A stretch of 64,000 bases of DNA from Bacilli bacterium (GTDB lineage Bacteria; Bacillota_I; Bacilli_A; RFN20; UBA1709). Both the position numbers and the translations under genes were made by a program. Each line of letters begins with the position of its first letter. Position 1 is the first letter of the stretch. Location: positions 80,260 to 144,259 of the forward strand of contig JAQUUH010000001.1 of the NCBI GenBank assembly GCA_028693955.1. The letters run 5' to 3'. Below, in pieces: positions 15,604 through 54,768 of this stretch. The notes below the pieces were generated by a model that was given only the letters and a program-made list of their open reading frames with translations, ran no database searches and was not told the origin of the DNA.

Positions 15604-15637
15604 TTTTTATAATAAAAACCCCACAAAAAGTGGGGTT
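15604..15637 (-). terminator. Rho-independent terminator after rpmA
   Basis: GC-rich hairpin AACCCCAC-aaaaa-GTGGGGTT (15617-15637) is followed on the minus strand by UUUUAUUAUAAAAAAA. Confidence 0.6.
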
Positions 15638-15649
15638 ATAAGAAACAAA

Positions 15650-15937: not shown

Positions 15938-15949
15938 TAAACACCTCCT

Positions 15950-16258: not shown

Positions 16259-16566
16259 TATGAATTAATAGATTCTATAGCAACTTTAGTATATGGTTGA
16301 CGATGACCATACTTTTTACGGTAGTTAGCTTTTGCACGGTATTTAAACACAATAACTTTTTTAGCCTTACCTTGTTTTGCAACTTTTGCAGTAACAGTAA
16401 CACCATTTAAATATGGTGTACCAACTTTTATTTTATCTCCACCTAGCATTAGAACTTTATCAAATGTAATAGTATCTCCTTCGGTGGCTTGAAGCTTTTC
16501 AACAAACACAGTATCTCCTACTTGTACTTTTATTTGCTTACCGCCTGTTTCAATAATTGCATACAT
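16258..16566 (-). CDS. rplU: ribosomal protein L21
   Basis: [18 protein letters not shown] is the canonical L21 N-terminus. The true start is ATG at 16566 with an AGGAGGTG RBS. The track ORF is over-extended by 17 codons. Confidence 0.9.
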
Positions 16567-16735: not shown

Positions 16736-17401
16736 TTATAATAATCCATTATCTTTTAATGAAAAATACTTTTCTTCACTAACTATTATATGATCTATTA
16801 ACTTTATTCCCATAATCTCACTTGCTTTTATTAATTCTTTTGTAGTATTCAAATCAGAATTACTTGGAAAAACATCACCGGATGGATGATTATGAATTAT
16901 TATTAAACTTTTGGCATTATTTTTTACAGCTTCTCTAAAAATATCCCTAGGATGAACAATATGAAGATCTAGACTACCAATAAAAAGTTTATTACATGCA
17001 ATTATAATATTTTTTGCATTTAAATATATGGCGAAAAATTGCTCTTGTAGTAAATTTTGAATTTGATCTTTAATAAAGTTAAATACATCCTTTGAAGAAG
17101 TAATTTTTACTATTTCATTTTCTTTAATTCTAGATAAAATGCGTCTTGATATTTCAATTGCAGCAATAATACTACATGCCTTAGCATTTTTTAACCCGTT
17201 AATTTTGAGTAATTCTCCAATTCTAGAATTTGCTAAGCCACTTAACCCATTACATTTTTTTAAAATTTCTCCTGAAAGTTCAACGACGTTCTTATCTTTA
17301 CTACCAGTTCTAATAATAACTGCAATCAATTCTAAATCACTTAAATATTCAATACCTTTTTTTATTATTTTTTCTCTTGGTAATTCGAATGATTTTATCA
17401 T
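16736..17401 (-). CDS. radC: RadC-like JAB/MPN domain protein
   Basis: A C-terminal JAMM motif HNHPSGDVFPSNSD and an N-terminal HhH region are present. It is 221 aa. Confidence 0.85.
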   Translation of the reverse strand: MIKSFELPREKIIKKGIEYLSDLELIAVIIRTGSKDKNVVELSGEILKKCNGLSGLANSRIGELLKINGLKNAKACSIIAAIEISRRILSRIKENEIVKITSSKDVFNFIKDQIQNLLQEQFFAIYLNAKNIIIACNKLFIGSLDLHIVHPRDIFREAVKNNAKSLIIIHNHPSGDVFPSNSDLNTTKELIKASEIMGIKLIDHIIVSEEKYFSLKDNGLL

Positions 17402-34824: not shown

Positions 34825-35748
34825 TTATAAAGTTCCTTTGTTTTTCAAAATATTTAAAACATTAACAAAATAATCTGGCAAATCACATTCAAATTTCATT
34901 TTTTTGTTACTTACTGGATGATTTAAAATTAAGCATTTTGCATGCAAAAGTTGACCATTTAGAAATTCAAACTTTTTACCACCATACAATAAATCTCCTA
35001 TAATTGGGTGATGAATGTACGCCATATGGACTCTTATTTGATGAGTACGACCTGTTTCCAATTTACATTCAATCAATGTATAACCATTGAATCTTTCTAT
35101 AACTTTAAAATGTGTGACTGCGTTTTTTCCAGAACTAACAACTGCCATTTTTTTACGATTGTTGAGATGTCTTCCTATTGGAGCAATTATTTCTCCCTCA
35201 CTATGCTCCATTTCACCACCAACAATTGCATAATATACCCTTGATGCTGTTTTATTTTTCAATTGCTCAGCTAATTTTTCATGAGCAAAATCATTTTTTG
35301 CAACCATCAATAGACCACTTGTATCCTTATCAATTCTATGAACAATTCCTGGACGAATACTACCATTAATAGAACTTAAGTTGTTCTCGAAATGATATAA
35401 TAAAGCATTTGCTAAAGTGCCACTATAGTGTCCATTTGCTGGATGTACTACCATCCCTTGAGGTTTATCAATAATTATTAAATCATCATCTTCATAAATT
35501 ATCTTTAATGGAATATTTTCTGGTGTAATTTTAGAATCACTTATCGGGATAATTTCGATTGTGATAACATCACCTGCAGATGTTTTGTAAGATGGTTTTA
35601 CTTCTTTATCATTAACTAAAATATCTCCATTATTTATCATATTCTGGATTCTAGTCCTTGAAAATGAAGAATAAATGTTAGAAATAAATTTATCTATTCT
35701 AGTACTTTCCATATTACTTTCAACAACAATTGTTAATAAATCATCCAT
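34825..35748 (-). CDS. rluD: RluA-family 23S rRNA pseudouridine synthase (RluD-like)
   Basis: An N-terminal S4 domain and the catalytic motif HRIDKDTSGLLMVAK are present. It is 307 aa. Confidence 0.8.
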   Translation of the reverse strand: MDDLLTIVVESNMESTRIDKFISNIYSSFSRTRIQNMINNGDILVNDKEVKPSYKTSAGDVITIEIIPISDSKITPENIPLKIIYEDDDLIIIDKPQGMVVHPANGHYSGTLANALLYHFENNLSSINGSIRPGIVHRIDKDTSGLLMVAKNDFAHEKLAEQLKNKTASRVYYAIVGGEMEHSEGEIIAPIGRHLNNRKKMAVVSSGKNAVTHFKVIERFNGYTLIECKLETGRTHQIRVHMAYIHHPIIGDLLYGGKKFEFLNGQLLHAKCLILNHPVSNKKMKFECDLPDYFVNVLNILKNKGTL

Positions 35749-36220
35749 TTTTTACCTTCTTTTCATCAATATACATGAATAGAATTAACGCTATAGTTCC
35801 ACAAACTACACAAATGTCTGCAAAATTAAAAACCGGAAAATTATAACCAAAAACATAGAAATCTAAAAAATCTACAACTCTTCCATAAAAAAGTCTATCA
35901 ATCCAATTTCCAATAGCTCCACCAATTATTAAAATAATTGATATATTGCCAAAAACTGAACGATTTTTTTGATATTTGAAATAGTATATGCTAAATCCTA
36001 TTGCAGTAATTGTTGATATTCCTACAAGAAGCCACCTACTATTTGAAAAACTAGACCATGCAGCACCCGTATTATAAATTAAAGTAAAATAGAAAAAATT
36101 ATTAATTATTTCAATAGGATTTCCTTCAATCAAATTAACTTCAGCTATATACTTTGTTAATTGGTCAACTACTATCAGCAATGGTACTAACAAAAATAGA
36201 AATACTTTTCTTCTATTCAC
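35741..36220 (-). CDS. lspA: lipoprotein signal peptidase II
   Basis: It is 159 aa with 4 TM helices and conserved Asp/Asn residues of the LspA family. It overlaps rluD by 8 nt. Confidence 0.85.
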   Translation of the reverse strand: MNRRKVFLFLLVPLLIVVDQLTKYIAEVNLIEGNPIEIINNFFYFTLIYNTGAAWSSFSNSRWLLVGISTITAIGFSIYYFKYQKNRSVFGNISIILIIGGAIGNWIDRLFYGRVVDFLDFYVFGYNFPVFNFADICVVCGTIALILFMYIDEKKVKNG

Positions 36221-39316: not shown

Positions 39317-39823
39317 CTAAATATTTCTTCGAAGTGAATTGTCCATATTTTCATTTTTTATCATAGGACTAAAAATGAAAGTTGAATTATTTATTCTTTT
39401 TACATCGGCTTTTAAAGCATAAGCGACTCCACACAAAAAATCAATTATACGTGTCGCACTGTGATTTTTTGAGTCATTTCTTATTAAGACTTCCAAATTA
39501 ACAATAACGACTTTACCATTCATTATTTCTTTTGAAATTTTCTCAGCCTCTTCATAAGCAGAAGGAGTATATACAGCAGCACTTGATAGACTTGAATCAT
39601 TAAATTGTGTAGTATAATTTTGATTTTTATTGTTATCAAAATCATATTTACTCTTTGGAGATGTAAAATCACTAAAATCATCTTTTGATTGAACTACTGG
39701 TCCTCTTGGTACTTGAGGATTATTTCCAAAATATGATTTTTCAGATTCAGAAGTTTTCATCATATCAGATAATGAATTTTCTTCTGTTGGAAATAAAAAT
39801 CTCTTTAATTTATCTCCTGCCAT
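39317..39823 (-). CDS. sepF: cell division protein SepF
   Basis: It is 168 aa. The C-terminal core KEIMNGKVVIVNLEVL...IIDFLCGVAYAL resembles the SepF/YlmF fold. It lies immediately downstream of ftsZ. Confidence 0.7.
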   Translation of the reverse strand: MAGDKLKRFLFPTEENSLSDMMKTSESEKSYFGNNPQVPRGPVVQSKDDFSDFTSPKSKYDFDNNKNQNYTTQFNDSSLSSAAVYTPSAYEEAEKISKEIMNGKVVIVNLEVLIRNDSKNHSATRIIDFLCGVAYALKADVKRINNSTFIFSPMIKNENMDNSLRRNI

Positions 39824-39859
39824 ATAACCTACCTCCTTTCAATAATGACATTGCTCAAA

Positions 39860-41038
39860 TTAATCTACTCTTTTTTTCCTTAAAAATGAAGGAATCAAAG
39901 TTGTATCTTCAATATTTGGTTCTTTATTGTTTTTATTATCCAAATTTTCGATTTCTGGTTGTTGTTTGACAGTTTTTAAAGAATTTGGATCAAGTTTAGA
40001 AATAGTGTTATTAATTTGCGAAGAATTCATACCTTTTGTTTGGTTATTACCATAAATTTTCGTTTCAATTCTATGCATATCAGAGCCTATAAATTCTGTT
40101 GCAATAACGGTAACAAACATTCTATCACCAAGAGACTCATCATAAGAAACTCCAAATATTACATTAATATCGTTATCTCCTGCTGCACTTCTAACAATAT
40201 CTACAGCATCATTAGCATCTACCAAAGTCATTGAAGATCCTCCTGATACATTTACTATTGCATTTTTAGCACCTTTAATTGAAGCTTCTAGTAAAGGTGA
40301 AGAAACTGCTGCAGTTGCTGCATCTCTTGCTCTATTATCACCATCTCCATACCCCATACCAATAAGTGCGGTTCCTTTATCTTTCATTATATTATAAACA
40401 TCAGCAAAATCTAGATTGATTATTGAAGGTTTAAGTATCAAATCTGTTATTGTTTTAACAGAATGACATAAAACATTATCAGCTTCTTTAAATGAATCCT
40501 TCAATGGTATTCCACCACTCATTTGTAATAATTGATCATTAGAAACAACAATTAGTGAATCAACATAATTACGTAGTTTTTGCAAACCTTCAACAGCATT
40601 AGCATTTCTTATTTTGCCTTCAAAATTAAACGGACGAGTAACAATACCTATTGTTAATGCCCCTAATTCTTTAGCAATCCTTGCAATTACAGGTGCAGCA
40701 CCAGTACCAGTGCCACCTCCCATACCAGCAGCAATAAACACCATATCAGCACCTCTAAGATTATTCCTAATGGTATCTTCACTAGCTTCTGCCGCTTTAA
40801 ATCCTACCTCTGGGTTAGCTCCTGCACCTAATCCTTTAGTGATTTCATAACCAAGAGGAAATCTATTTTGACATTTGGAAACAAACAAAACTTGAGCATC
40901 AGTATTTGTAACCCAAAACTCTACTCCTTCTATATTTTCATCAATCATTCTATTGACAGCGTTATTTCCGCCACCACCAACTCCAATGACTTTTATGTTA
41001 GCGACATATTCAGATATCGAATTTTCCCTATTATCCAT
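39860..41038 (-). CDS. ftsZ: cell division GTPase FtsZ
   Basis: The tubulin signature GGGTGTGAAPVIA and the T7 loop are present. It is 392 aa. Confidence 0.95.
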   Translation of the reverse strand: MDNRENSISEYVANIKVIGVGGGGNNAVNRMIDENIEGVEFWVTNTDAQVLFVSKCQNRFPLGYEITKGLGAGANPEVGFKAAEASEDTIRNNLRGADMVFIAAGMGGGTGTGAAPVIARIAKELGALTIGIVTRPFNFEGKIRNANAVEGLQKLRNYVDSLIVVSNDQLLQMSGGIPLKDSFKEADNVLCHSVKTITDLILKPSIINLDFADVYNIMKDKGTALIGMGYGDGDNRARDAATAAVSSPLLEASIKGAKNAIVNVSGGSSMTLVDANDAVDIVRSAAGDNDINVIFGVSYDESLGDRMFVTVIATEFIGSDMHRIETKIYGNNQTKGMNSSQINNTISKLDPNSLKTVKQQPEIENLDNKNNKEPNIEDTTLIPSFLRKKRVD

Positions 41039-41055
41039 AACAATTCCTCCTGTCT

Positions 41056-42195
41056 CTAAACATTGCTAAGTTCACGTTCGACTTTTGAAAATTTCTCAAT
41101 ATAAGAAATTATTGCACCAAAACAAGCATAATAACTAGCATCACTTCCACCTACTATATCAAATTTTCTAAGTATTACATCATCGTTTAAAGCCAATCTA
41201 AATTTTTCTTGTATTTTTTCAGTGTTTGCAACACCACCAGTTAATATAATTGGTAGATGATTATTTTTTGTTAAATATAAAATAGATTTTGATACTTCAT
41301 CTATAATTACATTTAACGACCTATCAACAATTTCAACAATTTCCTTTTCTTTTACCATCTTACCCGAAGTTTTGTTTTTATATACTTCAATATTTGTTGC
41401 TGAATTTAAATCAGCACTACCATATTTAACTTTAATAATTTCAGCTTGTTTTTTATCATTATCGAGAAAACTTGCTAATTCACTTGTAATAAATGTTCCT
41501 CCTGTTTTTCCTTGACGATATCCACAAAATAAATTCTTATAAAAGAAAGAAACAGAATTGTGAGCTCCACCTAGATCAGCAATTAAAACGCCATTTTTAC
41601 CCTCTTGTTCTTTTATTAAGGCATTAAATAGAGCAATTGGTAATGGTATGACATCCAGTATTTCAATTTCTAATTCTTGAATTGCATCAACTATTCCTTT
41701 TGCCAAACTTTGTGGAGAAGAAACCACAAACGCATCTAGTTCAATAGTATTTCCCCTATATCCTATTGGTTCATCCTCTACACTTTCACCATCTAAAGTA
41801 TATTGAATTGGATATATCCCAATTACCATTTCTCCAGTCATGATTTGATGAGAAGCACAAGCGTTTTTCAATAATTCAATGTCTCGAGAAGAAACAACTT
41901 TATTGACACTTGTAACATTATTACTTGCCTTTTTTCTATAAACATTCATGTTACTTGAAGGCAAAACAATTATCAACTTATGTATATCAAAATCTAAGGC
42001 TTTAGCTTTTTCAAGAAGACCTATCACTGTTCTTTGAATTTCATTTTTCGATGAAACATCTCCTGATGATATGCCTTGAGTTTCAGAATTAAAAATAGCA
42101 CAAATATTAAACTTATCACTATTAACAGTTCCAATAACAAGTTTTGAAGACCATTCGCCTATATCGATTGCAGCATATATTTTCTCAGAAATCAC
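41056..42195 (-). CDS. ftsA: cell division protein FtsA
   Basis: It has an actin/Hsp70-fold ATPase (DIGEWSSKLVIG...GGGTFIT) and is 379 aa. It is directly upstream of ftsZ. Confidence 0.85.
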   Translation of the reverse strand: MISEKIYAAIDIGEWSSKLVIGTVNSDKFNICAIFNSETQGISSGDVSSKNEIQRTVIGLLEKAKALDFDIHKLIIVLPSSNMNVYRKKASNNVTSVNKVVSSRDIELLKNACASHQIMTGEMVIGIYPIQYTLDGESVEDEPIGYRGNTIELDAFVVSSPQSLAKGIVDAIQELEIEILDVIPLPIALFNALIKEQEGKNGVLIADLGGAHNSVSFFYKNLFCGYRQGKTGGTFITSELASFLDNDKKQAEIIKVKYGSADLNSATNIEVYKNKTSGKMVKEKEIVEIVDRSLNVIIDEVSKSILYLTKNNHLPIILTGGVANTEKIQEKFRLALNDDVILRKFDIVGGSDASYYACFGAIISYIEKFSKVERELSNV

Positions 42196-42232
42196 TAAAA
42201 ATCACCCTCTTTTTTTATATTATCATATTACA

Positions 42233-43078
42233 TTAATCACATGGAAGAGCATAATCAGCAGCTCTATATATATAGCAATATTTACCATCTTTTAAACTTG
42301 GAGAAGAAGTAGAAATAGAGTTGCGTATCACATCAATATTTTCTTTTGTTAATTTTTTATCTACTGATCCTAAGTCAATTACTAATAATAAGTCATTATC
42401 AATATTTAAATCTTGGCCACTAAATACAAAGTCCACGACAGTCGTTGTTGATATACTATTTTTTGATATAGATAAAATTTCATTTCTAATTTCCCTTTTT
42501 GTTTTGCCAAGCAAATCTAATAACAGCAAAAATTGCTCACTTGTATATTGATTCTCATCAAAAAGAAAAGGAATATCACCAAATTGGGCAATATGTTTAA
42601 CATCAATAGCCTTGAAATTATTTAACCCATTAACTTCGTTTCCATTGCTCAAATAATAAATACAGTCATCACCATAATTGTCACAATAATTTCCTTTTTT
42701 TCCTACAACACTTACTTCATTAAGGGCTATTTTAACACCTAGTGGCGATAGATCAACTGTTGCACTATCTATATATTGATAATCATTCAACTTATTTTCA
42801 ATCTCCACACTATTAATGGACCATAAAAATGTTGAATTTGAAAAATCAGCAATATTGTATATATCTTCACTATTTAATATAGAAGTATTTCCTGATAAAT
42901 CAATGATTCTAGCCTTAGATAAAGGAGAAATTAAATAAGAAATTATTAAGACCCAAAAAACTAGGATAACAAAAAATCTTTTCTTTATGTTATCTAATCT
43001 TTTTTTTCTCGCATTTTTACATCTTGCTTTAAACGTAGATGTATTATTGTTTTCAATAGAACTATTAATAAAATCCAT
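42233..43078 (-). CDS. ftsQ: FtsQ/DivIB-like bitopic division protein (POTRA)
   Basis: A basic cytoplasmic tail and a single TM (FFVILVFWVLIISYLI) are followed by a POTRA-like ARIIDLSGNTSILNSEDIYNIA. It sits in the position of ftsQ/divIB upstream of ftsA. Confidence 0.5.
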   Translation of the reverse strand: MDFINSSIENNNTSTFKARCKNARKKRLDNIKKRFFVILVFWVLIISYLISPLSKARIIDLSGNTSILNSEDIYNIADFSNSTFLWSINSVEIENKLNDYQYIDSATVDLSPLGVKIALNEVSVVGKKGNYCDNYGDDCIYYLSNGNEVNGLNNFKAIDVKHIAQFGDIPFLFDENQYTSEQFLLLLDLLGKTKREIRNEILSISKNSISTTTVVDFVFSGQDLNIDNDLLLVIDLGSVDKKLTKENIDVIRNSISTSSPSLKDGKYCYIYRAADYALPCD

Positions 43079-43230
43079 CTACTAATTCTCTCCTATCTTT
43101 AAATTTATAATATAATTATACACATTAGTTTTAGTGTATTCAATTATACTTTGAAAAAAGACTTAAAAAAATCATATATAACGACTATATAATTACTAAT
43201 ATAATACTAAACAGTGCTTTTTGGTAATTG

Positions 43231-43264
43231 TTTTCAAAAAAAGTCTACACATAAAAGTGTAGAC
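43231..43264 (-). terminator. Rho-independent terminator after ftsL, inside the division cluster
   Basis: Hairpin GTCTACAC-ataaaa-GTGTAGAC (43243-43264) is followed on the minus strand by UUUUUUUGAAAA. Confidence 0.5.
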
Positions 43265-43295
43265 ATATACATAGAATAGAATATAAAAAGGGGGA

Positions 43296-43538
43296 TTAAT
43301 TATTATCTGTACTCATCGTAGTTGTTGGATTCAATAGTTCTTCTATGTCTCTTTTTAGTGTTTCGTTACGTGTAGATATTTGTGCTATTTCATCATTCAG
43401 CAAATAATTTCCTTCTTTTAATTCATTAGTCATTGGTTGAAGGAATATAAAAGCAAAAACAAACAAAACAACACTCACACAAAATAACACCCTTGATAAA
43501 TAGTCAAACTGTCTCATATTCCTTTTTTTAAGTTTCAT
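43296..43538 (-). CDS. ftsL: FtsL-like small bitopic coiled-coil protein
   Basis: It is 80 aa with a basic N-terminus, one TM (VLFCVSVVLFVFAFIFL) and a heptad-like C-terminus. It is directly downstream of rsmH, as ftsL is. Confidence 0.45.
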   Translation of the reverse strand: MKLKKRNMRQFDYLSRVLFCVSVVLFVFAFIFLQPMTNELKEGNYLLNDEIAQISTRNETLKRDIEELLNPTTTMSTDNN

Positions 43539-43551
43539 TGTTCTTACCTCC

Positions 43552-44487
43552 TTATATTTTCTGTATTATTCTTAATTTCGCACTGTGTGCCCTATTATTG
43601 TTTTCAATTTCTTGAGTACTTGGAATAATTGGCTTTCTTGTTATTAAATTGTATTGTATATCCTTTTTTTTAAGATCTATTGGCATAAATCTATTTCTAC
43701 TTTCTTCAGTTGTATATTTTTTAAAAACTTCTTTAACAATTCTATCTTCCAAAGAATGAAAAGTTATTACACAAACCCTACCTCCAGAATTTAATAATTT
43801 AATAGCCACTTCTAGTGTTTTACTAAGTATTCCCAATTCATCATTGACATATATTCTTAATGCTTGGAAAGTCCTTTTAGCTGGATGACCTCCAGTTATT
43901 TTGCTTTTTGTTGGAATTGATTTTTTGATTATTTCTACCAATTCATGTGTTGTTAATATCTCTTTTTTTGTTCTTTCTTTAACAATATTCCTAGCAATAT
44001 TTCTAGAATATTTTTCTTCTCCATATTTATATATAATATTTGCTATATCTTCTTCTTTATATGAATTAATTACTTCTTTTGCGGTCAAACTCTGGGTTTG
44101 ATCCATTCTCATATCTAAAAGGGCATCATGATTATAAGAAAATCCACGACTCCCTTCATCTAATTGAAAGGAAGAGACACCTAAATCGAAAATAATACCA
44201 TCTACTTTTTTTACATTGCATTCTTCAAGCTTTTCTTTTAAAAATCGAAAATTTGAATGAATTAATGTGAAGTTGTTGAGAGAGAGAGTTTGTAGATGCT
44301 CTTTGGATGCCTCAATTGCAGCTTCATCTTGATCAAAACAATATAGATGACCTGCATAATCTAAACGCTTCAATATTTGATAACTATGTCCTCCACCACC
44401 TGTAGTAGCATCGACATAAATACCGGACTTTTTAATTGCTAATCCTTCTATGCTTTCATTCAATAATACTGATTTGTGCTCATACAT
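43552..44487 (-). CDS. rsmH: 16S rRNA (cytosine1402-N4)-methyltransferase
   Basis: MYEHKSVLLNESIEGLAIKKSGIYVDATTGGGGHS matches the MraW SAM-binding N-terminus. It is 311 aa. Confidence 0.9.
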   Translation of the reverse strand: MYEHKSVLLNESIEGLAIKKSGIYVDATTGGGGHSYQILKRLDYAGHLYCFDQDEAAIEASKEHLQTLSLNNFTLIHSNFRFLKEKLEECNVKKVDGIIFDLGVSSFQLDEGSRGFSYNHDALLDMRMDQTQSLTAKEVINSYKEEDIANIIYKYGEEKYSRNIARNIVKERTKKEILTTHELVEIIKKSIPTKSKITGGHPAKRTFQALRIYVNDELGILSKTLEVAIKLLNSGGRVCVITFHSLEDRIVKEVFKKYTTEESRNRFMPIDLKKKDIQYNLITRKPIIPSTQEIENNNRAHSAKLRIIQKI

Positions 44488-44495
44488 ATGATGAC

Positions 44496-44912
44496 CTACA
44501 ATTTTTCAGCGACTTTATCAAATGTTTCTAATGCTTCTTGTTCATACTTTTGCCAATTCTCTTTTGACCAAATTTCAATATGATTTATTGTTCCTACTAA
44601 AACAACATCCTTATTGATATTTGCATGAGTCAAGAGATTTTGTGGGATTATTACCCTTCCATGAGAATCACATGAACAATCAGAAGCACTTCCAGCAAAC
44701 ATTCTTAAATGCTTTCTTGCATCAGAAGAATTAGTGTTTAAAGTAAGGAGTTTTTCTTGGAGTTTACTCCATTCATCATTAGTGTAGATAGAAATACATT
44801 CATCAAATCCAATAGTCATTACAGCATCTGAGCCAATTTTATCTCTAAATTTTGCTGGTATTGTTAATCTACTTTTATCATCAATAGTATGACTATATTG
44901 TCCAATAAACAT
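44496..44912 (-). CDS. mraZ: transcriptional regulator MraZ
   Basis: It has two tandem MraZ (SpoVT/AbrB-like) repeats, MFIGQYSHTIDDKSRLTIPAKFR... and ...SHGRVIIP. It is 138 aa. Confidence 0.9.
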   Translation of the reverse strand: MFIGQYSHTIDDKSRLTIPAKFRDKIGSDAVMTIGFDECISIYTNDEWSKLQEKLLTLNTNSSDARKHLRMFAGSASDCSCDSHGRVIIPQNLLTHANINKDVVLVGTINHIEIWSKENWQKYEQEALETFDKVAEKL

Positions 44913-45923: not shown

Positions 45924-47066
45924 ATGAAAGTCGTGGGCGTTGTTGTTGAATACAATCCATTCCATTATGGACACCTTTATCATTTGAAAACGGCAAAATC
46001 TTTAACAAATGCTGACCTCATAATAGGTGTGATTTCAACATATTTTGTTCAAAGAGGAGAACCTTCTATTCTTCCATTACATAAAAGAATTAGTGATGCT
46101 TTGGATAGTGGAGTAAATTTAATTGTCGAATTGCCATTCATATACAGCGTAGAATCTGCTGATATTTTTGCCAAATACTCTTTGCAAATACTTGAGGCTT
46201 TAAAATGTAATGAATTTGTCTTTGGTAGTGAAAGTGGCGATACAAAAGAATTTATGAAAAAGTATAACTCTAAAACGTTTACCTCACCTAGAATTGATGA
46301 GATTATTAAAAAATATCTTAAAGAAGGCTATTCTTATCCAAAGGCAAGTAGTTTAGCTCATTTTGAAATAAGCAACTACTATCTTGACACTCCAAATGAT
46401 ATCCTTGGAAACTCATATATAAAAGCTATTGAAAAATATAAATACAATTTGTCACCAATTATCATTAAAAGAATAAATGAAAAAAATTGCTCTTCTGCAA
46501 GCAAAATAAGAAAATTAATGATTAAAAACGAAAAAGCACAAGTTACGAAATATACTCCTATTAAATATTTATTTGAAGATGTTCATGATTTCGAAAAATA
46601 TTTTCCGCTACTAAAATACAAATTACAAACAAGTTCTTCAAAAGAACTAGAAAACATACATTTAATATCCGAAGGAATACATAATCTTTTTAAAAAAAAT
46701 ATCGATTCTTCAAATTCAATGGAAGAATTCATTAGTAAATGTACTTCAAAAAGATATAGTTCAGCTAGAATTAAAAGGACAATAATACATATATTAGTAA
46801 GCACTCCAAAAGAAGATGCAAAAACTTTTTTACAAGAAAAAATTCCTTTTGTAAGAGTTTTAGGCTTTGATAAACTAGGACAAAAATACTTAAACAAAAT
46901 AAGAAAAGAAGTAGCGATTCCGATAATATCCAATTTTGCTGGAAAAGACTCTAAAATACACCAATTAGAAAAAAAAGCAGTAAATGTTTATTATTCTATT
47001 GATAAAGAACCTCAAAAAACCATTAATCAAAATAAATATTTGCATATTTTCCCAATTATTAAGTAG
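45924..47066 (+). CDS. tmcAL: tRNA(Met) cytidine acetate ligase TmcAL-like nucleotidyltransferase (YlbM/UPF0348)
   Basis: The N-terminal HxGH nucleotidyltransferase motif VVVEYNPFHYGHLYHL is present. It is 380 aa. Its divergent position next to yceD-rpmF matches the B. subtilis ylbM-ylbN-rpmF neighbourhood. An AGGAGG RBS is present. Confidence 0.6.
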   Translation: MKVVGVVVEYNPFHYGHLYHLKTAKSLTNADLIIGVISTYFVQRGEPSILPLHKRISDALDSGVNLIVELPFIYSVESADIFAKYSLQILEALKCNEFVFGSESGDTKEFMKKYNSKTFTSPRIDEIIKKYLKEGYSYPKASSLAHFEISNYYLDTPNDILGNSYIKAIEKYKYNLSPIIIKRINEKNCSSASKIRKLMIKNEKAQVTKYTPIKYLFEDVHDFEKYFPLLKYKLQTSSSKELENIHLISEGIHNLFKKNIDSSNSMEEFISKCTSKRYSSARIKRTIIHILVSTPKEDAKTFLQEKIPFVRVLGFDKLGQKYLNKIRKEVAIPIISNFAGKDSKIHQLEKKAVNVYYSIDKEPQKTINQNKYLHIFPIIK

Positions 47067-47103
47067 TTTTACCTTATTTTTTATGGAAGTAGTTATAGTT
47101 ATT

Positions 47104-47112
47104 TGATATAAT
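47104..47112 (+). promoter_or_regulatory. candidate extended -10 promoter of the jetABC-like operon
   Basis: TGaTATAAT lies at 47104-47112, about 20 nt upstream of the AAAGGAG RBS. No terminator separates it from tmcAL. Confidence 0.35.
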
Positions 47113-47140
47113 TAATTATACGTACAAAGGAGAAATGCTA

Positions 47141-48550
47141 ATGGATTTATACGATGTAATTCCAAACAATTTATTTACAGTACTAACAAGCAAAAATAGA
47201 AGTATTTATGCAAAAAGTTTACTGATAATTTATAATTTTTTTAAAGAAAATATTATTATTGATAAAGATATAGTTGTAGCACATTTAATTAATGAGTTGC
47301 AATCTGACATTTTTGATATTGATACAAATGTTGATGAAGAAACATTTGAGGCTTCGCAAAAGGATGCTACATCTTTAGCAAAATACATTATGAGGCGACT
47401 TTTTGATACTGGATGGATTGATATTGAATATGAAAGTTATAGTAAACTTCAAGAATATGTTTCACTTCCTCCATACTCTATAAAACTTATCAGTACTATT
47501 TCAGAAATATCAACTAATGAAGTTAAAGAATATGATTCATTTATGTATTCTATGTATTCATCCTTGCTAAACTCAGATCAAAATTATAATGATTTTAGAT
47601 TTACTGCCCTTAATAATGTTTACGATAAAATGCATGAATTTGAAGAGTCATTAAAAACTTTATTTCATAATCTAAAACGCCGCTACACAAACCTTATTTC
47701 ATTAAAAACTGTTAATCAAATATTAAGTGAGCACTTTGATTCATATCAAAAAGATGTAATTATGCAAATATACCTTCCTTTAAAAACAAAAGATTCAATA
47801 ACTAGATTTAAAGGCAGCATATTTAATATTCTCATAAAATGGATGAGAGATGAAAAAATTATTAACTCGATGATTGCACAAGCTATGGTCCAGAATCGCT
47901 TTCAAGATGATGATGAAGCAAAATTGGATATACTTAATAAAATTAACTACATAGTAGATAAACTAAACGATCTTGATGAATTAGTTGATTTGATTGATAG
48001 CCGTAATTCTACATATATAAGTGCTGCAACAGAAAAAATGCACCACTTATTGAGTAATGATCGTTCAATCACAGGTAAAATGACAAAAATAATTGCAACC
48101 ATAGCCAAAGATGAATTTAATGGATATGACAATAATTTACATATATGTGAGAATTTTTTATTCTTACAAAAACAAGAATATCTAAATGAAGAATCTTTAT
48201 TTAATCGCGCTCAAAGTATACATAAATATCTAAACAACGAACCTTCAGAAATACTTTATGTAGATGAACAAATAGTTCAAAAACTTAAATCAACATTTGA
48301 AGAATCTACAAATAACCGATTTTCATATCGAAATGTTATAAACTATATGAAAGAACAACTTGAAAATACTAAAAACATTTCAACAAAAGATATTGTTATA
48401 GAAAATAGCGATGATTTCTTGTTGTTATTACATTCATTTATTCATGGATTTGATAATAATGTTTTTTATAGTTTAAAACTATATAAGGGCAATATTATAA
48501 ATAATAATTATTCGCTTCCTAATTTAGAATTTGTAAGAAGGAGAATTTAA
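47141..48550 (+). CDS. JetA/MksF-like kleisin-family protein (putative, DUF3375-like)
   Basis: It is 469 aa and helical. It is the first gene of a 3-gene cassette whose third gene is an unmistakable MukB/JetC-type ATPase. Its size and position match JetA/MksF. The start is ATG at 47141 (MDLYDV, 8 nt from AAGGAG). The track began 2 codons earlier. Confidence 0.5.
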   Translation: MDLYDVIPNNLFTVLTSKNRSIYAKSLLIIYNFFKENIIIDKDIVVAHLINELQSDIFDIDTNVDEETFEASQKDATSLAKYIMRRLFDTGWIDIEYESYSKLQEYVSLPPYSIKLISTISEISTNEVKEYDSFMYSMYSSLLNSDQNYNDFRFTALNNVYDKMHEFEESLKTLFHNLKRRYTNLISLKTVNQILSEHFDSYQKDVIMQIYLPLKTKDSITRFKGSIFNILIKWMRDEKIINSMIAQAMVQNRFQDDDEAKLDILNKINYIVDKLNDLDELVDLIDSRNSTYISAATEKMHHLLSNDRSITGKMTKIIATIAKDEFNGYDNNLHICENFLFLQKQEYLNEESLFNRAQSIHKYLNNEPSEILYVDEQIVQKLKSTFEESTNNRFSYRNVINYMKEQLENTKNISTKDIVIENSDDFLLLLHSFIHGFDNNVFYSLKLYKGNIINNNYSLPNLEFVRRRI

Positions 48551-48551
48551 T

Positions 48552-49184
48552 ATGTGGAATGAAAAATACGATTTATTAACTAATAGCGAAAAAGAAAGAT
48601 TTACCAAAATTGTTAACTATATTTTAAATAAAACTTTCCTTCTTCGAGAAACATACGAAGAAAAAGATAGAATAGGTAAAATTTCTGCCGATTATAGATT
48701 TTTTGAACGTAATTATGAACTATTTCAAGATTATTTAGAAATTGCTGGATATTCTATATCAAAAGATGATTCTGAAGGAATAATATCTATATCTAACATT
48801 TATTTTACAAATATATTAAGACTTGATAAGTTTACTACCTTATTTTTGCTAATATTAAGACAAATATATGATGAGGAAAAAGAAAAAGCTCCTTCTGGCA
48901 ACGTTGTTTTTGTAAAAGGCAGTGAAATTGTTGTCAAAATGATTGATAACAAACTACTAACAAAAAAACCAACAATTAAAGATATGACTGATGTCTTACG
49001 TTTATTAATTCGTCACAATATTATTGCAAAATTTGATGGAAATATAGAAGATAGCAATGTTACTTTAACAATATATCCAACAATCTTAAAAGTTGTTTCT
49101 AATGAAAAAATAACAGCAATATATGATAACATGTTTAAAAAAGATGAAGAAGCAATAAAAAACGACATCTCATTTGAGGCATAA
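48552..49184 (+). CDS. JetB/MksE-like protein (putative, DUF4194-like)
   Basis: It is 210 aa and acidic. The motif YRFFERNYELFQDYLEIAGYSISKDDSEGIISI resembles the conserved YxFxxRHxxxLxxYFxxxGxxLxxDExEG block of JetB/MksE. It starts 2 nt after the preceding stop. Confidence 0.55.
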   Translation: MWNEKYDLLTNSEKERFTKIVNYILNKTFLLRETYEEKDRIGKISADYRFFERNYELFQDYLEIAGYSISKDDSEGIISISNIYFTNILRLDKFTTLFLLILRQIYDEEKEKAPSGNVVFVKGSEIVVKMIDNKLLTKKPTIKDMTDVLRLLIRHNIIAKFDGNIEDSNVTLTIYPTILKVVSNEKITAIYDNMFKKDEEAIKNDISFEA

Positions 49185-49198
49185 AAGGAGAAAACAAA

Positions 49199-52100
49199 AT
49201 GAAAAAACTTAAAAAATTATTACTTATAAATTGGCATTATTTTTCTTTCCAAATAATGAATTTTGATGACATAAATTTTTTGACAGGTAAAAATGCCTCT
49301 GGTAAAACAACAATAATTGATGCCATACAACTATTAATCCTTGGAGATACAACAGGTCACTTTTTCAATAAATCCGCCTCAGACAAATCAACAAGATCTT
49401 TAAAAGGATACTTAAGGTGTGAATTTGGTGATAGTGAAGATGGCTCGATTATGTATTTAAGAAATGGTAGATTTTCAAGTTATGTAGTTCTTGAATTTGA
49501 AGATGACATTACGAAATCTTCTTTTGTTGTGGGTATTGTTTTTGATAATTATGATGATAATTCTTACGACTATAAATTCTTTTATTATAATGATAAAATT
49601 TCTGAGAATAACTTTATTGTTAATAACATACCTATGGATCAAAAAGCTCTACGTATTTTTTTAATGCAAAACAATATAGATAATAAATTTTTTGAAACAA
49701 ATTCCTCTTATCGTGATTTTGTTAAAGTGTTATTTGGCAATTTAAATAATAATTTTTTCTCTTTATTCAAAAAATCCATACCTTTTTCACCAATAACAAA
49801 TATTGAACAATTTATTACAGAATATGTTTGTGATGTAAAAAACAATATAGATATTTCTTCTATGCAAGAAAATATTCGTAACTACAAAAAATTAGAAATC
49901 GAGAGCAACGAAATTGAAAAAAAAGTTAATGAATTAAAAACTTTAAATGATGCCTACGATTCATGGCACACTGATTTCAATAAAATAGCATTACAAAAAT
50001 ATCTTATAAATCGAAGCGATTTATATTTCACAAATAAAAATATTGAAAAACTTAATGATGAAATTGAAGATTTAAAAAATGAAATTATTGATAAAACTAA
50101 TATATTAAAAAGCTGCGAAGAGAAAATAAAAAATTTCAATTTGCAAAGAGATCAGCTTAATAAAGAAAAATTTGAATCCGATATTTACAAACAAAAAGCC
50201 GTTTATGATGAAAAAGCATTGCAAATTGAAAAGAAAATAAAAAATCTTGAAGATTCTATTTTAAATATTAAATCTAGCCTTGTAATTTACTGTGATTCTT
50301 GGATTAAAGCAGTAAATGATTTACTAAAAAGCAATAACGATATTCTTCCAGTTGAGTTTCTTTCAATTTCAAAAGAGTTTAAAAACAAACTAATCACTTT
50401 TAAAAACGAATCAATAATTAGTGAAAAATTATTAAATAATTTCCAACAACTTATCCAAGACTACTCTTCTAAAATTAGTAATATTTCTTTTTTAATTAAT
50501 AGTAAAAGTTATGAATTAAGAAATTCAATTAGTAATCTAAAAAAAGAAATTTCTATATTAGAAAGTGGTAACAAAGCTTATAATCCTAATCTTTTAAGTT
50601 TCAAGAAAATGATGGAAAATGAATTATCTAAAAAATATAACAAAAACATAGAAGTTCATTTTCTTGCTGATTTAGCTGATATTAAAACCCCTGAGTGGAG
50701 AATGGCCATTGAAACTTTTTTATACACTCAACGCTTCTACTTAATTGTTGAACCTCAATATGTAGATAGCGCTATATCAATATATGAAAAAATAAAAAAA
50801 GAATATAATTTTTCAGAGTTTGGGATATTAGACACAGAAAAAATTTCTAATAGCAATTTTACTCATTTACCTAATTCTATTGTTGAAGAAATATCTTGTA
50901 ATAATGATATTGTGAAAAAATATTTAAACAGTTTAATGGGAAATCTTATCAAATGTGAAAGGATAGAAAACCTAAGAAAACACAATCGCTCCATAACAAA
51001 ATCAGGAATGCTTTATCAAGGATTTGTTGCAAGACAATTGAATTTTAAAAAGACTTCACCATTTATTGGAAATGGATTTGCAAAAGATCAATTAGAATAC
51101 AAAAAAGAACAATTGCAAAACTATGATAAAGAATTTATGGAATTATCAGCTACTACAAGTTACATAAATATTTTTAGTAGCCTTGAATATTTCAATTCAA
51201 ATGAAGTAAAAACCTCAACCCAAACCTTGGAAGAGGCAAGTATTTTACCAGAATTACATAATGAACTTGAAGAAATAAAGAATCTTTTAAAAGCATTTAA
51301 CGATAAATATTTAGAGAATTTGGAGAAAAATATCAGAAAATGTGAAATTTCTATTGGTGAGCTTGAAGGCGAAAAAATAGAATTAAATAAAGATATAATT
51401 CAATGCACTCTTGAAATACAAAAAAATGAGAAAGACAAAATACCTGCCCTTAATTTACAACTTGAAAAATTAAAAGAACAAATTAAAACCCAATTTGAAA
51501 GAGATTGGATAATTAATGTCGGAGAACCAGAATTTGTTAATATTTCTATTTCTCGTAAAGAATTACAACTATATATTCAAAACATCAAAAATAGTTTGAA
51601 TACTACAAATGCAATGACTAATAGCAAATGGAATAGTCTTGTCGAAAAACGAATTAAATATAATACTATTTATAATACTACCAATGATGCACTTGCTCTT
51701 AATAATGATTATTACGAGCAGCAATATAAAGAACTTGCAGACACTAAGTTAGTAGAGTATAAATCAAAAATAATAATTGCTAAAAATAATGCAATGAATC
51801 AATTTAAAAATGATTTTTTGAGTAAATTAAAATCGAATTTTGATGTTGTAATAGCTCAAATGGAGAATTTAAATGATGCATTGGAATCTTCTACTTTTGG
51901 AGAAGATAGTTACCATTTTGTTGTTATTCCTAGACCAGAATACAAAAAATATTATGAAATGATAAATGATAAATTATTACTTCTTGGAAACGATATAAAT
52001 TCCAGCGATTTTCAAAATAAATATGGAGAAGCTATCGAGGATTTATTTAGACAAATAACATTTGTCGATTCTGAAATAAATGCTGATTTTAGAATAGAAT

Positions 52101-52528
52101 TAGAAAAAAATATTGAAAAATTTACTGACTATAGAAGTTATCTACAATTTGACTTAATAGTAACTAATCAATATGGGAACAAACAATCTCTTTCTAGAAA
52201 TCTTTTGAAAAAATCAGGTGGAGAAACCCAAACACCTTTTTACATTTCAGTATTGGCATCTTTTGCTCAAGCATATAGAGTAAAACTTGAAGGCGATAAA
52301 TTCAACTCAATTAGACTAATAATTTTTGATGAGGCATTTTCAAAAATGGATTCTGAAAGAATAACAGAAAGCATCAAATTATTGCGTCAGTTTGGATTAC
52401 AAGCAATTCTTAGTGCTCCACCCGAAAAAATTGCAGATATTTCAAACCTTGTAGATAAAACATTATGCGTTGTTAGAAATAACACTGTTTCTATAGTTTC
52501 AGAATTTAAAGAACTAAAAAACATTTAA
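49199..52528 (+). CDS. JetC/MksB-like SMC-family ATPase (MukB-type head, long coiled-coil arms)
   Basis: The N-terminus LLLINWHYFSF...FLTGKNASGKTTIIDAIQLLILGD parallels MukB (LTLINWNGFF...LSGGNGAGKST...LIPD). The C-terminus has the signature KSGGETQ, Walker B LIIFDEAFSKMD and a D-loop, with about 800 aa of heptad-rich coiled coil between. It is 1109 aa. Confidence 0.75.
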   Translation: MKKLKKLLLINWHYFSFQIMNFDDINFLTGKNASGKTTIIDAIQLLILGDTTGHFFNKSASDKSTRSLKGYLRCEFGDSEDGSIMYLRNGRFSSYVVLEFEDDITKSSFVVGIVFDNYDDNSYDYKFFYYNDKISENNFIVNNIPMDQKALRIFLMQNNIDNKFFETNSSYRDFVKVLFGNLNNNFFSLFKKSIPFSPITNIEQFITEYVCDVKNNIDISSMQENIRNYKKLEIESNEIEKKVNELKTLNDAYDSWHTDFNKIALQKYLINRSDLYFTNKNIEKLNDEIEDLKNEIIDKTNILKSCEEKIKNFNLQRDQLNKEKFESDIYKQKAVYDEKALQIEKKIKNLEDSILNIKSSLVIYCDSWIKAVNDLLKSNNDILPVEFLSISKEFKNKLITFKNESIISEKLLNNFQQLIQDYSSKISNISFLINSKSYELRNSISNLKKEISILESGNKAYNPNLLSFKKMMENELSKKYNKNIEVHFLADLADIKTPEWRMAIETFLYTQRFYLIVEPQYVDSAISIYEKIKKEYNFSEFGILDTEKISNSNFTHLPNSIVEEISCNNDIVKKYLNSLMGNLIKCERIENLRKHNRSITKSGMLYQGFVARQLNFKKTSPFIGNGFAKDQLEYKKEQLQNYDKEFMELSATTSYINIFSSLEYFNSNEVKTSTQTLEEASILPELHNELEEIKNLLKAFNDKYLENLEKNIRKCEISIGELEGEKIELNKDIIQCTLEIQKNEKDKIPALNLQLEKLKEQIKTQFERDWIINVGEPEFVNISISRKELQLYIQNIKNSLNTTNAMTNSKWNSLVEKRIKYNTIYNTTNDALALNNDYYEQQYKELADTKLVEYKSKIIIAKNNAMNQFKNDFLSKLKSNFDVVIAQMENLNDALESSTFGEDSYHFVVIPRPEYKKYYEMINDKLLLLGNDINSSDFQNKYGEAIEDLFRQITFVDSEINADFRIELEKNIEKFTDYRSYLQFDLIVTNQYGNKQSLSRNLLKKSGGETQTPFYISVLASFAQAYRVKLEGDKFNSIRLIIFDEAFSKMDSERITESIKLLRQFGLQAILSAPPEKIADISNLVDKTLCVVRNNTVSIVSEFKELKNI

Positions 52529-52546
52529 TTTTAAGGAGAAAAAATT

Positions 52547-53470
52547 GTGAAAAAATTATTAAAAGCATTATTTATAATAACACTAATTGTTCCTTTTATT
52601 TCATCATGTTCAAGTGAATACGATGGAGATTATATGGCTAGTGGAATAATTGTTACCATTAAAGATGGAGCTTATGTAATAACAACCTCAAGCGCAATTC
52701 TTACAAATGATAAAGTAATTCGTGATGTTAGTATAGATGTCGTTGTTATTCCTTTTTATGGCATGAGGAAAAATGGTACACCTGACTATCCTGCTGGAAT
52801 TAGTATATTAAATTCTTCTACAGATGATAGCACTGATATTTATGCTTATGTAAGAGATGCTGGAGATAACCTAGTAAATAGTAAAAAGATATTAGGTGCT
52901 AATTACAAAATGGCTTCTACTTTAGAACATCGTATTTGGTCTTCTCAAGTTGAAAGAATTGAAGATTATCTTGTTGGAAAAGATTATAATTCACTTATTA
53001 GAAATATTTGCACTCCATCATCTGGTTATACTACATGTACTAGTTTACTAGATGATAGTGTTTCAGTTAATGAAGGAGCACTACTTGATTTTTATGGATT
53101 TGATAAAGTAATGGGAGCAACAATATCAATAGCGAACAATGGCTATGATTCCATCGCTGGTTCTCTTATCGAAATGTTTAATAGCAATTTAAAAGAAATA
53201 TCTGAAAATTTTGAAAATATTAGTAGTAATTTTTCATATTCTGTTTCTTTTGAAAATAATATTTTAAAAGTGGTCTTCACAAATATTATAAACTCTAAAG
53301 AAAAAATAATAGATTATGTGGAAATACCATTAAAAATATCTAATAAAGCTATTTTATACAATGATACCAAAACATACATAATTCCCGATTCATCTTATAA
53401 ACAAGTATATAAAAATTTAGAAACAATTGATTTAGATACCGACTTGTTAAAGTCTAGTTACGAAAAATAA
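52547..53470 (+). CDS. predicted lipoprotein of unknown function, fourth gene of the jetABC-like operon
   Basis: Signal peptide MKKLLKALFIITLIVPFISS with lipobox F-I-S-S-C is present. It has a GTG start with an AAGGAG RBS 8 nt upstream and lies 18 nt after jetC-like with no intervening terminator. It has no P-loop or Toprim features. Confidence 0.55.
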   Translation: MKKLLKALFIITLIVPFISSCSSEYDGDYMASGIIVTIKDGAYVITTSSAILTNDKVIRDVSIDVVVIPFYGMRKNGTPDYPAGISILNSSTDDSTDIYAYVRDAGDNLVNSKKILGANYKMASTLEHRIWSSQVERIEDYLVGKDYNSLIRNICTPSSGYTTCTSLLDDSVSVNEGALLDFYGFDKVMGATISIANNGYDSIAGSLIEMFNSNLKEISENFENISSNFSYSVSFENNILKVVFTNIINSKEKIIDYVEIPLKISNKAILYNDTKTYIIPDSSYKQVYKNLETIDLDTDLLKSSYEK

Positions 53471-53500
53471 AGCTTAGAAAATATTTTCTAAGCTTTTTTC
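53470..53500. terminator. bidirectional Rho-independent terminator (perfect palindrome) between convergent operons
   Basis: AAGCTTAGAAAAT|ATTTTCTAAGCTT (53470-53495) forms a 12-bp perfect stem and is followed by TTTTT on the plus strand and a U-run on the minus strand. The minus-strand acyltransferase stop codon (53488-53490) lies inside the stem. Confidence 0.6.
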
Positions 53501-54768
53501 TTGTTTTTAATAAATTTATACATTTCCTCAGCCGCAAAATGAAGTTTGGTAACAATATTTTTTTTATTTATAGGAAATAAATAATAAGTATCATTTAGTG
53601 TAGATAAACTAAAGCAATCACCTTTACCAAAATAATCATATTCAATATGAATTGAATATGTTGAAAGAGGATCTTTTAATAATTCAAAATTTCCACCTTC
53701 TAGATCTGCTTTTATACTAAATCCTGACTCATCATGTTTTACATGTCCAAGTCCCAAACGATAAAATCCTTTACTATTTGGTAAAGAATCAATATATACA
53801 TCTTCTTCAAATTTGTAATTACCATTTTCAATTTCTTTTCTTACTTCACTTCTTTCCCATTCAAACCAATCTGGTATATGAGAAAAACGGGCTTTTTTGC
53901 CATCTATTCTTTTAAGTTCTCCAATGGTAGTAAGTTCCCATATGCTATTGCAATTATTACATTTTAAATAAGTACCATAACTAGTCATTTTTTCTTCATT
54001 ACCACATTCACAGCATTTATATAATGGTTTATGAAGGTTTCTAGCACGATTAGGATTATCAATTATAATATTATTATCTTTCTGCCATTTGTATTCATCA
54101 TATATAAAAGCATTATTTATTCTATCATTAATAGTATCAATATCAAGTTTACTAATTTCTTCTTTGGTAATAATTTGTGTCATATCTGCAGTTATATTAT
54201 TATTGCGACTTTGCAAATTCCAAACTGGACTACTTAAGTGATTGCCATGCATATTAAGAACTACAACTGGTACATCTAAATACTTACAAAGCTTACCAAG
54301 AGATTCTGGAAGTATTGCGTTTGTTCCTACAATTGAATATCTAGCTTCCGGATAAATACACAATATATCTTTATAATCATTAACAACTTTTTTTAAATGT
54401 TTAACCAAAACCAAATCATTAGTGAACTTCCTTTTACAAATTCCACCGGCATTTCGCAAAATCATCTCTCGATTAATAAATCCATCTATAGCAACTACAT
54501 AACTTGCTCTATGGGGAAAAATGGCCATAGTTGTAACTTTAAAATCAACAAATGCATGATGAGTACATAATAAAAGATATGGTTTTTTCAATCCTTCCAT
54601 TCCAATACGAGTAATTTTCAAATGACGCTTCCTGGTTTCAAAAAACGATATTAGCCAAGTAAGTGGCTTTAGTATTGTTCTTTGTCTTTTGGGAGTTACC
54701 TCAAGTTTAAAGCGATGCATCCTATTTACTTCATCAAGTTTTTTATATTCTATTTTAGATATTTTCAT
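53488..54768 (-). CDS. PlsC-family acyltransferase with a C-terminal zinc ribbon
   Basis: The HX4D acyltransferase motif LLCTHHAFVDF and a second block IYPEARYS are present. The C-terminus has CCECG...CNNCN. The probable start is ATG at 54768 (MKISKIEY), 7 nt after the pheT stop with GAGGT just upstream. An alternative start at 54804 would overlap pheT by 29 nt. Confidence 0.55.
   Translation of the reverse strand: MKISKIEYKKLDEVNRMHRFKLEVTPKRQRTILKPLTWLISFFETRKRHLKITRIGMEGLKKPYLLLCTHHAFVDFKVTTMAIFPHRASYVVAIDGFINREMILRNAGGICKRKFTNDLVLVKHLKKVVNDYKDILCIYPEARYSIVGTNAILPESLGKLCKYLDVPVVVLNMHGNHLSSPVWNLQSRNNNITADMTQIITKEEISKLDIDTINDRINNAFIYDEYKWQKDNNIIIDNPNRARNLHKPLYKCCECGNEEKMTSYGTYLKCNNCNSIWELTTIGELKRIDGKKARFSHIPDWFEWERSEVRKEIENGNYKFEEDVYIDSLPNSKGFYRLGLGHVKHDESGFSIKADLEGGNFELLKDPLSTYSIHIEYDYFGKGDCFSLSTLNDTYYLFPINKKNIVTKLHFAAEEMYKFIKNKKKA

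Follow-up and report, generated by a model that had tools for sequence, protein, structure and literature searches.

Can a Wadjet-type DNA motor outlive the loss of its nuclease, and for what purpose would a cell then keep it? In canonical type I Wadjet systems, JetABC stalls once it has fully extruded a small circle, and JetD then binds the complex and cleaves the DNA that is left. The question arises from a 64,000-nucleotide stretch of DNA (hereafter the window) of a Bacilli bacterium (assembly GCA_028693955.1, contig JAQUUH010000001.1, positions 80,260 to 144,259), in which positions 47141-52528 of the plus strand hold full-length, tightly packed jetA, jetB and jetC genes, with the open reading frame (ORF) of a lipoprotein directly on their 3' side. 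A first-pass annotation, made from the sequence alone, had left two readings standing, namely a Wadjet-derived system with a different or absent effector, or an MksBEF-type complex serving as a second condensin. The evidence assembled here favours a nuclease-free complex of the MksBEF type. On balance, we consider it somewhat better than an even bet (a probability of about 0.55) that the cassette is a domesticated JetABC that works on the host chromosome, much as MksBEF does.

A type I JetABC cassette without its nuclease

The proteins of 469, 210 and 1109 amino acids (aa) had been assigned to JetA, JetB and JetC, and their full-length matches in Pfam and PADLOC support this assignment and place all three in type I. 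JetA matches Pfam PF18982 from position 2 to 434 of the 434 in the profile (E=1.8e-82) and PADLOC JetA1 at E=4e-116, while JetB matches Pfam PF13835 (DUF4194/JetB; E=7.5e-19) and PADLOC JetB1 (4.1e-68, positions 1-204 of 214), so that both are predicted to belong to the families proposed for them and not to unrelated ones. For JetC, the best match is PADLOC JetC1, which runs end to end (E=0, 1096 bits, positions 1-1089 of 1097), accompanied by the Pfam domains AAA_29 (9e-15) and SbcC_Walker_B (1e-24). The ATPase motifs quoted at first reading are all present in this protein. Its N-terminus reads LLLINWHYF...LTGKNASGKTT, including the Walker A motif GKNASGKTT, and its C-terminus carries KKSGGETQTPF, with the signature SGGE, and IRLIIFDEAFSKMD, with the Walker B motif LIIFDEAF. 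The middle is hinge-like and the coiled coils are long. A second in-frame ATG at 47135 would extend JetA to 471 aa; the start at 47141 is favoured by its proper spacing to an AAGGAGA ribosome-binding site and is also the start given in the ENA record (469 aa, PF18982).

Neighbouring families were found to fit less well. JetC scored 18.2 bits against the MukB N-terminal profile PF04310, below the 23-bit cut-off, and no MukE or MukF matches were found in Pfam. Against the general structural maintenance of chromosomes (SMC) profiles of Pfam it also fell short (SMC_N 29.3 bits against a cut-off of 40, SMC hinge 18.1 against 22.5), and its partners are JetA and JetB. Among other SMC-like defence ATPases (LmuB, MADS3, AriA), the matches to LmuB (1.7e-9) and mad3 (1e-7) lay far below that to JetC1. 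JetB of the window gave no match to the Pfam MksE family PF21980, for which a weak match appeared only in one relative, L011 (relatives are designated here by locus number). The closest solved structures of JetC in the PDB are the JetC proteins of E. coli GF4-3 and P. aeruginosa PA14, both of type I, and single-sequence searches of JetA and JetB against PDB structures found nothing. By its profile and structure matches, the 1109-aa protein belongs with JetC.

The absence of JetD from the cassette, which had been noted from the start, extends to the whole window. An unfiltered scan of all six frames of the 64 kb, with a profile made from the JetD ORFs of related loci (60 sequences), revealed no JetD and no JetD remnant, the best match having E=2.3. 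As a positive control, the JetD of a related locus, L012, scored as JetD1 at 2.5e-124. These results indicate that the cassette is a JetA-JetB-JetC set of type I Wadjet without the nuclease. It lacks the JetD that a complete type I Wadjet has, and annotating it as active defence would be unwarranted.

A clade of JetD-less loci

Relatives of the cassette were inspected over about 10 kb on each side of the locus, compared with 64 kb for the source genome. A scan of a genome collection added 80 loci, all loci were scored with profiles, and a neighbour-joining tree on protein distances was built for JetC with 88 taxa, all from metagenome-assembled sources. In this tree, 36 JetD-less loci group together, labelled as metagenome-assembled genomes (MAGs) of Bacilli, Erysipelotrichaceae, Mollicutes, "Bacillales UBA" and Candidatus Onthovivens. 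Profile scoring of the flanks found no jetD within about 10 kb of any of the 36. The sub-clade that contains the window is supported by 100 of 100 bootstrap replicates, and the tree fits a single ancient loss of JetD while also allowing a few losses.

Of the 53 loci outside the clade, 50 have a jetD that overlaps jetC or directly adjoins it. The JetD-bearing loci come mostly from Clostridia and also from Peptococcaceae, Alicyclobacillus, Negativicutes, spirochaetes and others. Their closest representatives have JetC proteins about 40-43% identical to that of the window; one of these is L012, from a spore-former (JetC 42% identical), in which a canonical jetD overlaps jetC. At positions 1-7461 of L012, jetABCD lies directly 3' of prophage baseplate and tail genes, a setting that resembles a defence island, unlike the housekeeping context of the JetD-less clade. 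The remaining three loci outside the clade (L049, L054 and L089) have no jetD within 5-10 kb downstream and may represent recent sporadic losses, or have jetD elsewhere.

A second JetD-less sub-clade of about 21 loci occupies a different housekeeping slot, with rlmN-stp-prkC-rpe on one side of jetABC and glgC-glgD-glgA-leuS-coaX on the other. The genes 3' of jetC were considered as alternative effectors and rejected, as they are glgC, glgD, glgA, leuS and coaX, and no defence-family matches were found among the flanking genes of this sub-clade. As a separate observation, PrkC in these loci (L046/L041 and about 19 others) is about 298 aa long, with the kinase domain as its only Pfam match and apparently no room for extracellular PASTA repeats. 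Several loci of the low-GC Bacilli JetD-less clade (L053, L064 and L078) come from bins titled Slackia isoflavoniconvertens, Parabacteroides goldsteinii or Lachnospiraceae bacterium GAM79 ("cleanbin" isolates); the titles are probably mislabelled or the bins contaminated.

A fixed place in the core genome

The cassette had been described as an accessory block lying between conserved genes, a view that the neighbourhood comparison contradicts. Seven further species-level loci (L002, L004, L005, L007, L009, L011 and L095) carry jetABC in the same slot, in the arrangement yceD-rpmF(/tmcAL) followed by jetABC and then by pheTS on the opposite strand. In the first six of these, the cassette lies 3' of yceD-rpmF, usually after tmcAL, and is convergent with pheTS. 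JetC of the same-slot relatives is 43-62% identical to that of the window, and none of them has jetD within 10 kb. L095, as well as a further locus, L097, in which the lipoprotein gene and jetC can be followed beside pheT up to the contig end, was retrieved via PheT and hence independently of Jet.

PheT is an essential protein, and JetC behaves much like it. In the sub-clade of the window, JetC and PheT identities are correlated with r=0.94 over 15 genome pairs, and JetC is conserved nearly as well as PheT (43-74% against 48-67% identity). Because the divergence of JetC tracks that of PheT at about equal conservation, the cassette is, as far as sequence comparison can tell, a vertically inherited core-genome component at a fixed position and not a mobile defence island or accessory block.

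Conservation of the motor

The Walker A, signature and Walker B motifs, along with many residues of the head and hinge, are invariant in 11 members of the clade. In every domain of JetA, JetB and JetC, the JetD-less clade is at least as conserved per site as the JetD-bearing loci are, and the mean per-site entropy of JetC is 1.73 in the clade against 1.97 in those loci. Since the ATPase motifs are invariant and the entropy equals or is lower than that of JetD-bearing systems, the motor has remained intact and is maintained by purifying selection. The same comparison revealed no region of relaxed constraint and essentially no clade-specific substitutions in JetC, JetA or JetB after the loss of JetD.

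A review places a contact with JetD in an "IFDR" motif at the N-terminus of JetB (PMC10586767). The literal motif occurs in the JetB N-termini of neither the JetD-bearing nor the JetD-less group, and both instead have M-[WF]-x-E-x-[YF]-x-x-L. A JetB profile of 20 sequences fails to reach the proteobacterial JetB proteins in the PDB; the Firmicute JetB proteins compared here have diverged too far from those with solved structures for the IFDR contact to be mapped.

The lipoprotein gene

The fourth gene was correctly recognised as that of a lipoprotein. The protein has a signal peptide and a lipobox (FISS|C), and Cys21 is invariant among its homologues. The gene starts 18 nt after the jetC stop codon, has its own AAGGAGA ribosome-binding site and is probably co-transcribed with jetABC. 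No match was found in Pfam, PADLOC or NCBIfam. Among 5.8 billion proteins, its family numbers only 20, each of them from a Bacilli MAG, and an AlphaFold2 model from a 6-sequence alignment had a mean confidence (pLDDT) of 37.7 and was unusable.

It had further been suggested that this lipoprotein fills the slot of JetD as a different effector, and here the annotation does not hold. In favour of a replacement fourth subunit, the gene stands 18 nt from jetC, ahead of a shared terminator, with the adjacency kept in five species-level loci (the window, L002/L003, L004, L095 and L097). On the other hand, L005, L007, L009, L011 and the whole of the second sub-clade do not have it, although their jetABC is intact. 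Judged by its signal peptide and lipobox, and with lspA encoded in the window, the protein is predicted to sit on the outer face of the membrane and would therefore be topologically separated from the cytoplasmic SMC complex and its DNA. Moreover, neither a nuclease nor any other domain was found in it, and the family is small. That the lipoprotein is a substitute effector is hardly credible on these grounds. As some members of the clade have it and others do not, sequence comparison identifies it as a lineage-specific, co-oriented neighbour, neither a substitute for JetD nor an integral Jet subunit.

Possible function of the cassette

The history and mechanism that we propose are as follows. 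An ancestral lineage would have lost the JetD Toprim nuclease long ago, after which the three remaining genes would have been passed down vertically in the core chromosome. The solved type I JetABC complexes serve as the model for the architecture (bioRxiv 10.1101/2022.10.04.510915; 10.1101/2023.11.03.565488). By family membership, the complex should share this architecture, in which an N-terminal dimer of JetA would bridge two JetC dimers and JetB dimers would be bound to the kleisin, and it should likewise use ATP to translocate on DNA and extrude loops. Without JetD, the extruded DNA would no longer be cut, and the JetABC motor could have been kept for the cell's own chromosome, for its compaction, organisation or segregation. 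The idea that nuclease loss can turn Wadjet into a chromosome-maintenance complex has been put forward explicitly, with MksBEF as a likely product (bioRxiv 10.1101/2025.03.10.642339). Taking synteny, vertical descent, constraint and the MksBEF precedent together, a chromosomal role is the most likely one.

Several points weigh against this reading. All organisms of the clade are uncultured MAGs, and the case for a chromosomal role is drawn from the evolutionary pattern and the MksBEF precedent. The node that unites all 36 JetD-less loci has a bootstrap support of only 62 of 100. The unchanged conservation of JetABC would be equally expected if a partner still binds, and, as only the flanks of about 10 kb were viewed at each locus, jetD or another nuclease may lie elsewhere in these genomes. 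The clade genomes may also have Smc-ScpAB, so that a need for another condensin can only be presumed; probes of B. subtilis Smc, ScpA and ScpB gave no real match among the ORFs of about 1.9 Mb of loci, which consist of 10-kb flanks only. Nor is the cassette universal. A walled relative, L096, whose PheT is 52% identical, has no jet genes although it keeps the order pheTS...tmcAL...yceD-rpmF-mraZ. Between its pheT and yceD (12477-16348) lie an ApbE-like gene, tmcAL and a gene for cardiolipin synthase, and no Jet remnants were found in any of the six frames of this empty site, so at least one related lineage can do without JetABC. A PheT-anchored scan of metagenomes for presence or absence of the cassette returned only two loci, near-identical or short.

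The most serious rival to a chromosomal role is an anti-plasmid system that works without a nuclease, in which JetABC would sense small circles by extruding them fully and then compact, silence or mis-segregate them, as eukaryotic Smc5/6 does with episomes. The motor is intact with the same conservation profile as in JetD-bearing systems, entrapment or compaction has been discussed as a mode of SMC immunity (PMC10586767), and bacteria with reduced genomes in the gut or rumen may still benefit from control over plasmids. We nevertheless regard it as unlikely, given that all four subunits, JetD with its catalytic glutamate among them, are reported to be essential for restriction in the Wadjet systems tested (bioRxiv 10.1101/2022.10.04.510915), and that the cassette is syntenic, flanked by housekeeping genes and co-diverging with PheT, when genes for defence are as a rule mobile, patchily distributed and quick to evolve. 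A related possibility is that the locus is part of a split but otherwise ordinary Wadjet, whose nuclease, be it JetD or a non-homologous protein, is encoded at another place in the genome and still cleaves plasmids together with JetABC. The limited flanks leave space for such a gene, and the docking surface may persist, since the JetB N-termini and all regions of JetC are as conserved as in JetD-bearing loci. This split arrangement seems distinctly unlikely to us. The tight linkage of jetD to jetC outside the clade makes a separation unprecedented, and it would have to have been stable over at least 36 diverged loci; in addition, no candidate nuclease is conserved in either of the two housekeeping neighbourhoods and no JetD-like sequence occurs in the 64 kb of the window.

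A decaying remnant of a Wadjet island could also be imagined, as JetD is missing and one relative has an empty site. The conservation data in effect refute such decay: none of the three ORFs is shortened in any of more than 36 loci, the ATPase motifs are invariant, and conservation is similar to that of PheT and no lower than in JetD-bearing systems. A bolder version of the domestication hypothesis, in which JetABC has become the main or only condensin and replaced Smc-ScpAB in a wall-less Bacilli lineage with a genome of about 1 Mb, is in our judgement quite unlikely. If true, a takeover like that by MukBEF in gamma-proteobacteria would have happened a second time, independently and, in evolutionary terms, recently, and with nuclease-bearing sisters that are about 40% identical, the transition from Wadjet to condensin could be reconstructed step by step.

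Relation to known systems

Type I Wadjet (JetABCD/MksBEFG/EptABCD), known from E. coli GF4-3, P. aeruginosa PA14 and C. glutamicum, has the same three families in the same order, jetA-jetB-jetC. The clade differs in having no JetD in the window or beside any member, and in its fixed housekeeping context, vertical descent and PheT-like conservation, whereas Wadjet loci such as L012 lie in a defence-island or prophage-adjacent context. MksBEF of P. aeruginosa PAO1 resembles the cassette as an operon of kleisin, KITE and SMC genes without the nuclease (MksG). It is thought to derive from JetABCD through the loss of JetD and to act on the chromosome (PMC10586767; bioRxiv 10.1101/2020.05.18.101659). 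Compared with MksBEF, the cassette would represent an independent event in a different phylum; its proteins fall in type I Jet profiles, it is still close to its nuclease-bearing sisters, and it is known from its genes alone. MukBEF of Enterobacteria shares the superfamily architecture and the proposed route, that of a domesticated Wadjet-like system which replaces or joins Smc-ScpAB, but the gene order and sequences of the cassette are Jet-like and not Muk-like.

In the literature searched, a type I clade without JetD has not been described from Bacilli, Erysipelotrichia or Mollicutes-like bacteria. A paper on Hi-C of the OMM12 community and a paper on Bulleidia were considered as prior descriptions and rejected, as neither covers a JetD-less Bacilli clade; Bulleidia extructa (Erysipelotrichales) has a full jetABCD.

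It has been proposed by SMC researchers that MukBEF and MksBEF are domesticated Wadjet systems, with nuclease loss as the locking step, and the examples known so far have diverged too much to reveal how this came about. The clade described here offers a type I JetABC that is still Wadjet by sequence, is free of the nuclease, is fixed in a core-genome position and has identifiable JetD-bearing sister groups. In many species of Bacilli with reduced genomes, some of them wall-less, it evolves roughly as fast as a subunit of an aminoacyl-tRNA synthetase. The domestication hypothesis is therefore directly testable in this clade by comparative genomics, biochemistry and heterologous complementation. 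There is also a practical consequence for genome annotation. Defence annotators that require four genes are expected to miss the JetD-less loci, and those that accept three may miscount them as immunity.

Transcription signals and genomic surroundings

The features of the window are collected in Table 1. The cassette had been credited with an extended -10 promoter of its own. The motif TGaTATAAT is present, but it has no acceptable -35 element and was not reported by a two-hexamer scan; promoter-like matches in the region numbered 53, against 67 expected from shuffled sequences, and are thus not enriched in this AT-rich DNA. For these reasons the motif is not evidence of a private promoter and can be regarded as a possible promoter only. 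Because the gap between tmcAL and jetA is about 70 nt and contains no terminator, read-through from tmcAL into jetA is equally possible. The bidirectional terminator, also proposed at first reading, is borne out at the level of sequence. The hairpin is predicted as a terminator on both strands and would be common to the jet-lipoprotein unit and the convergent unit formed by an ORF of 438 aa and pheTS.

Table 1. Features of the window around and beyond the JetABC cassette (positions count from the first letter of the window)
Feature	Coordinates	Strand	Remarks
Extended -10-like motif TGaTATAAT	47104..47112	+	29 nt 5' of jetA start; read in sequence
jetA, kleisin subunit	47141..48550	+	469 aa; Pfam PF18982, PADLOC JetA1
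jetB, KITE subunit	48552..49184	+	210 aa; Pfam PF13835 DUF4194/JetB, PADLOC JetB1
jetC, SMC-type ABC ATPase	49199..52528	+	1109 aa; PADLOC JetC1, Pfam AAA_29 + SbcC_Walker_B
Orphan lipoprotein gene	52547..53470	+	307 aa; GTG start, signal peptide + lipobox
Bidirectional intrinsic-terminator-like hairpin	53469..53496	both	12-bp perfect stem, 4-nt loop, T-tracts on both sides
ORF of 438 aa	53488-54804	-	Overlaps pheT start by 29 nt
radC region	16736-17401
ORF of 307 aa	25005-25928	-	No Pfam family at E<=1e-5
ORF of 201 aa	33691-34296	-	No Pfam family at E<=1e-5
lspA	35741-36220
Division cluster	39317-44912		mraZ-rsmH-(80-aa ftsL-like)-ftsQ/POTRA-ftsA-ftsZ-sepF
Housekeeping genes, first group			hisS, relA, apt, secDF, ruvBA, nadE, two ABC exporters, obg (Pfam)
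Housekeeping genes, second group			radC, valS, engB, lon, tig, P-type ATPase, uvrC, mutS2, rnhC (Pfam)
Housekeeping genes, third group			rluD, lspA, ileS, sepF-ftsZ-ftsA-ftsQ-(ftsL-like)-rsmH-mraZ, rpmF-yceD, tmcAL (Pfam)
Genes beyond the cassette			pheTS, SpoU methylase, ygjP, trkAH (Pfam)

A Pfam scan of every window ORF of at least 150 aa showed surroundings of housekeeping genes and no JetD. The suggestion that the genome is that of a wall-less organism gains support from these surroundings. In the window, the division and cell wall (dcw) cluster is devoid of pbp, mur, mraY and ftsW, and mreBCD was not found after radC, in contrast to the walled relative L096, which has genes for a penicillin-binding protein (PBP) and MurE directly after the ftsL-like gene at the corresponding place. 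On this basis, it is reasonable to suppose that the source lineage is wall-less while retaining FtsZ, FtsA and SepF.

Among the housekeeping genes, the ORFs of 307 and 201 aa listed in Table 1 are without a Pfam family. The 438-aa ORF has no significant Pfam match and no counterpart in any related locus; it contains an HxxxxD motif (THHAFVD), as found in PlsC-type acyltransferases, and a CxxC...CxxC stretch resembling a zinc ribbon, and its stop codon falls inside the shared terminator hairpin. The cassette also differs slightly in composition, with a GC content of 24-26% against 27-32%, and the GC skew of the plus strand, about -0.2 to -0.3 across the window, rises to about 0 to +0.06 over the cassette (46001-54000 region). 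The tmcAL, jetABC and lipoprotein genes are oriented opposite to almost all of their neighbours, and because of this orientation they are probably transcribed head-on to replication.

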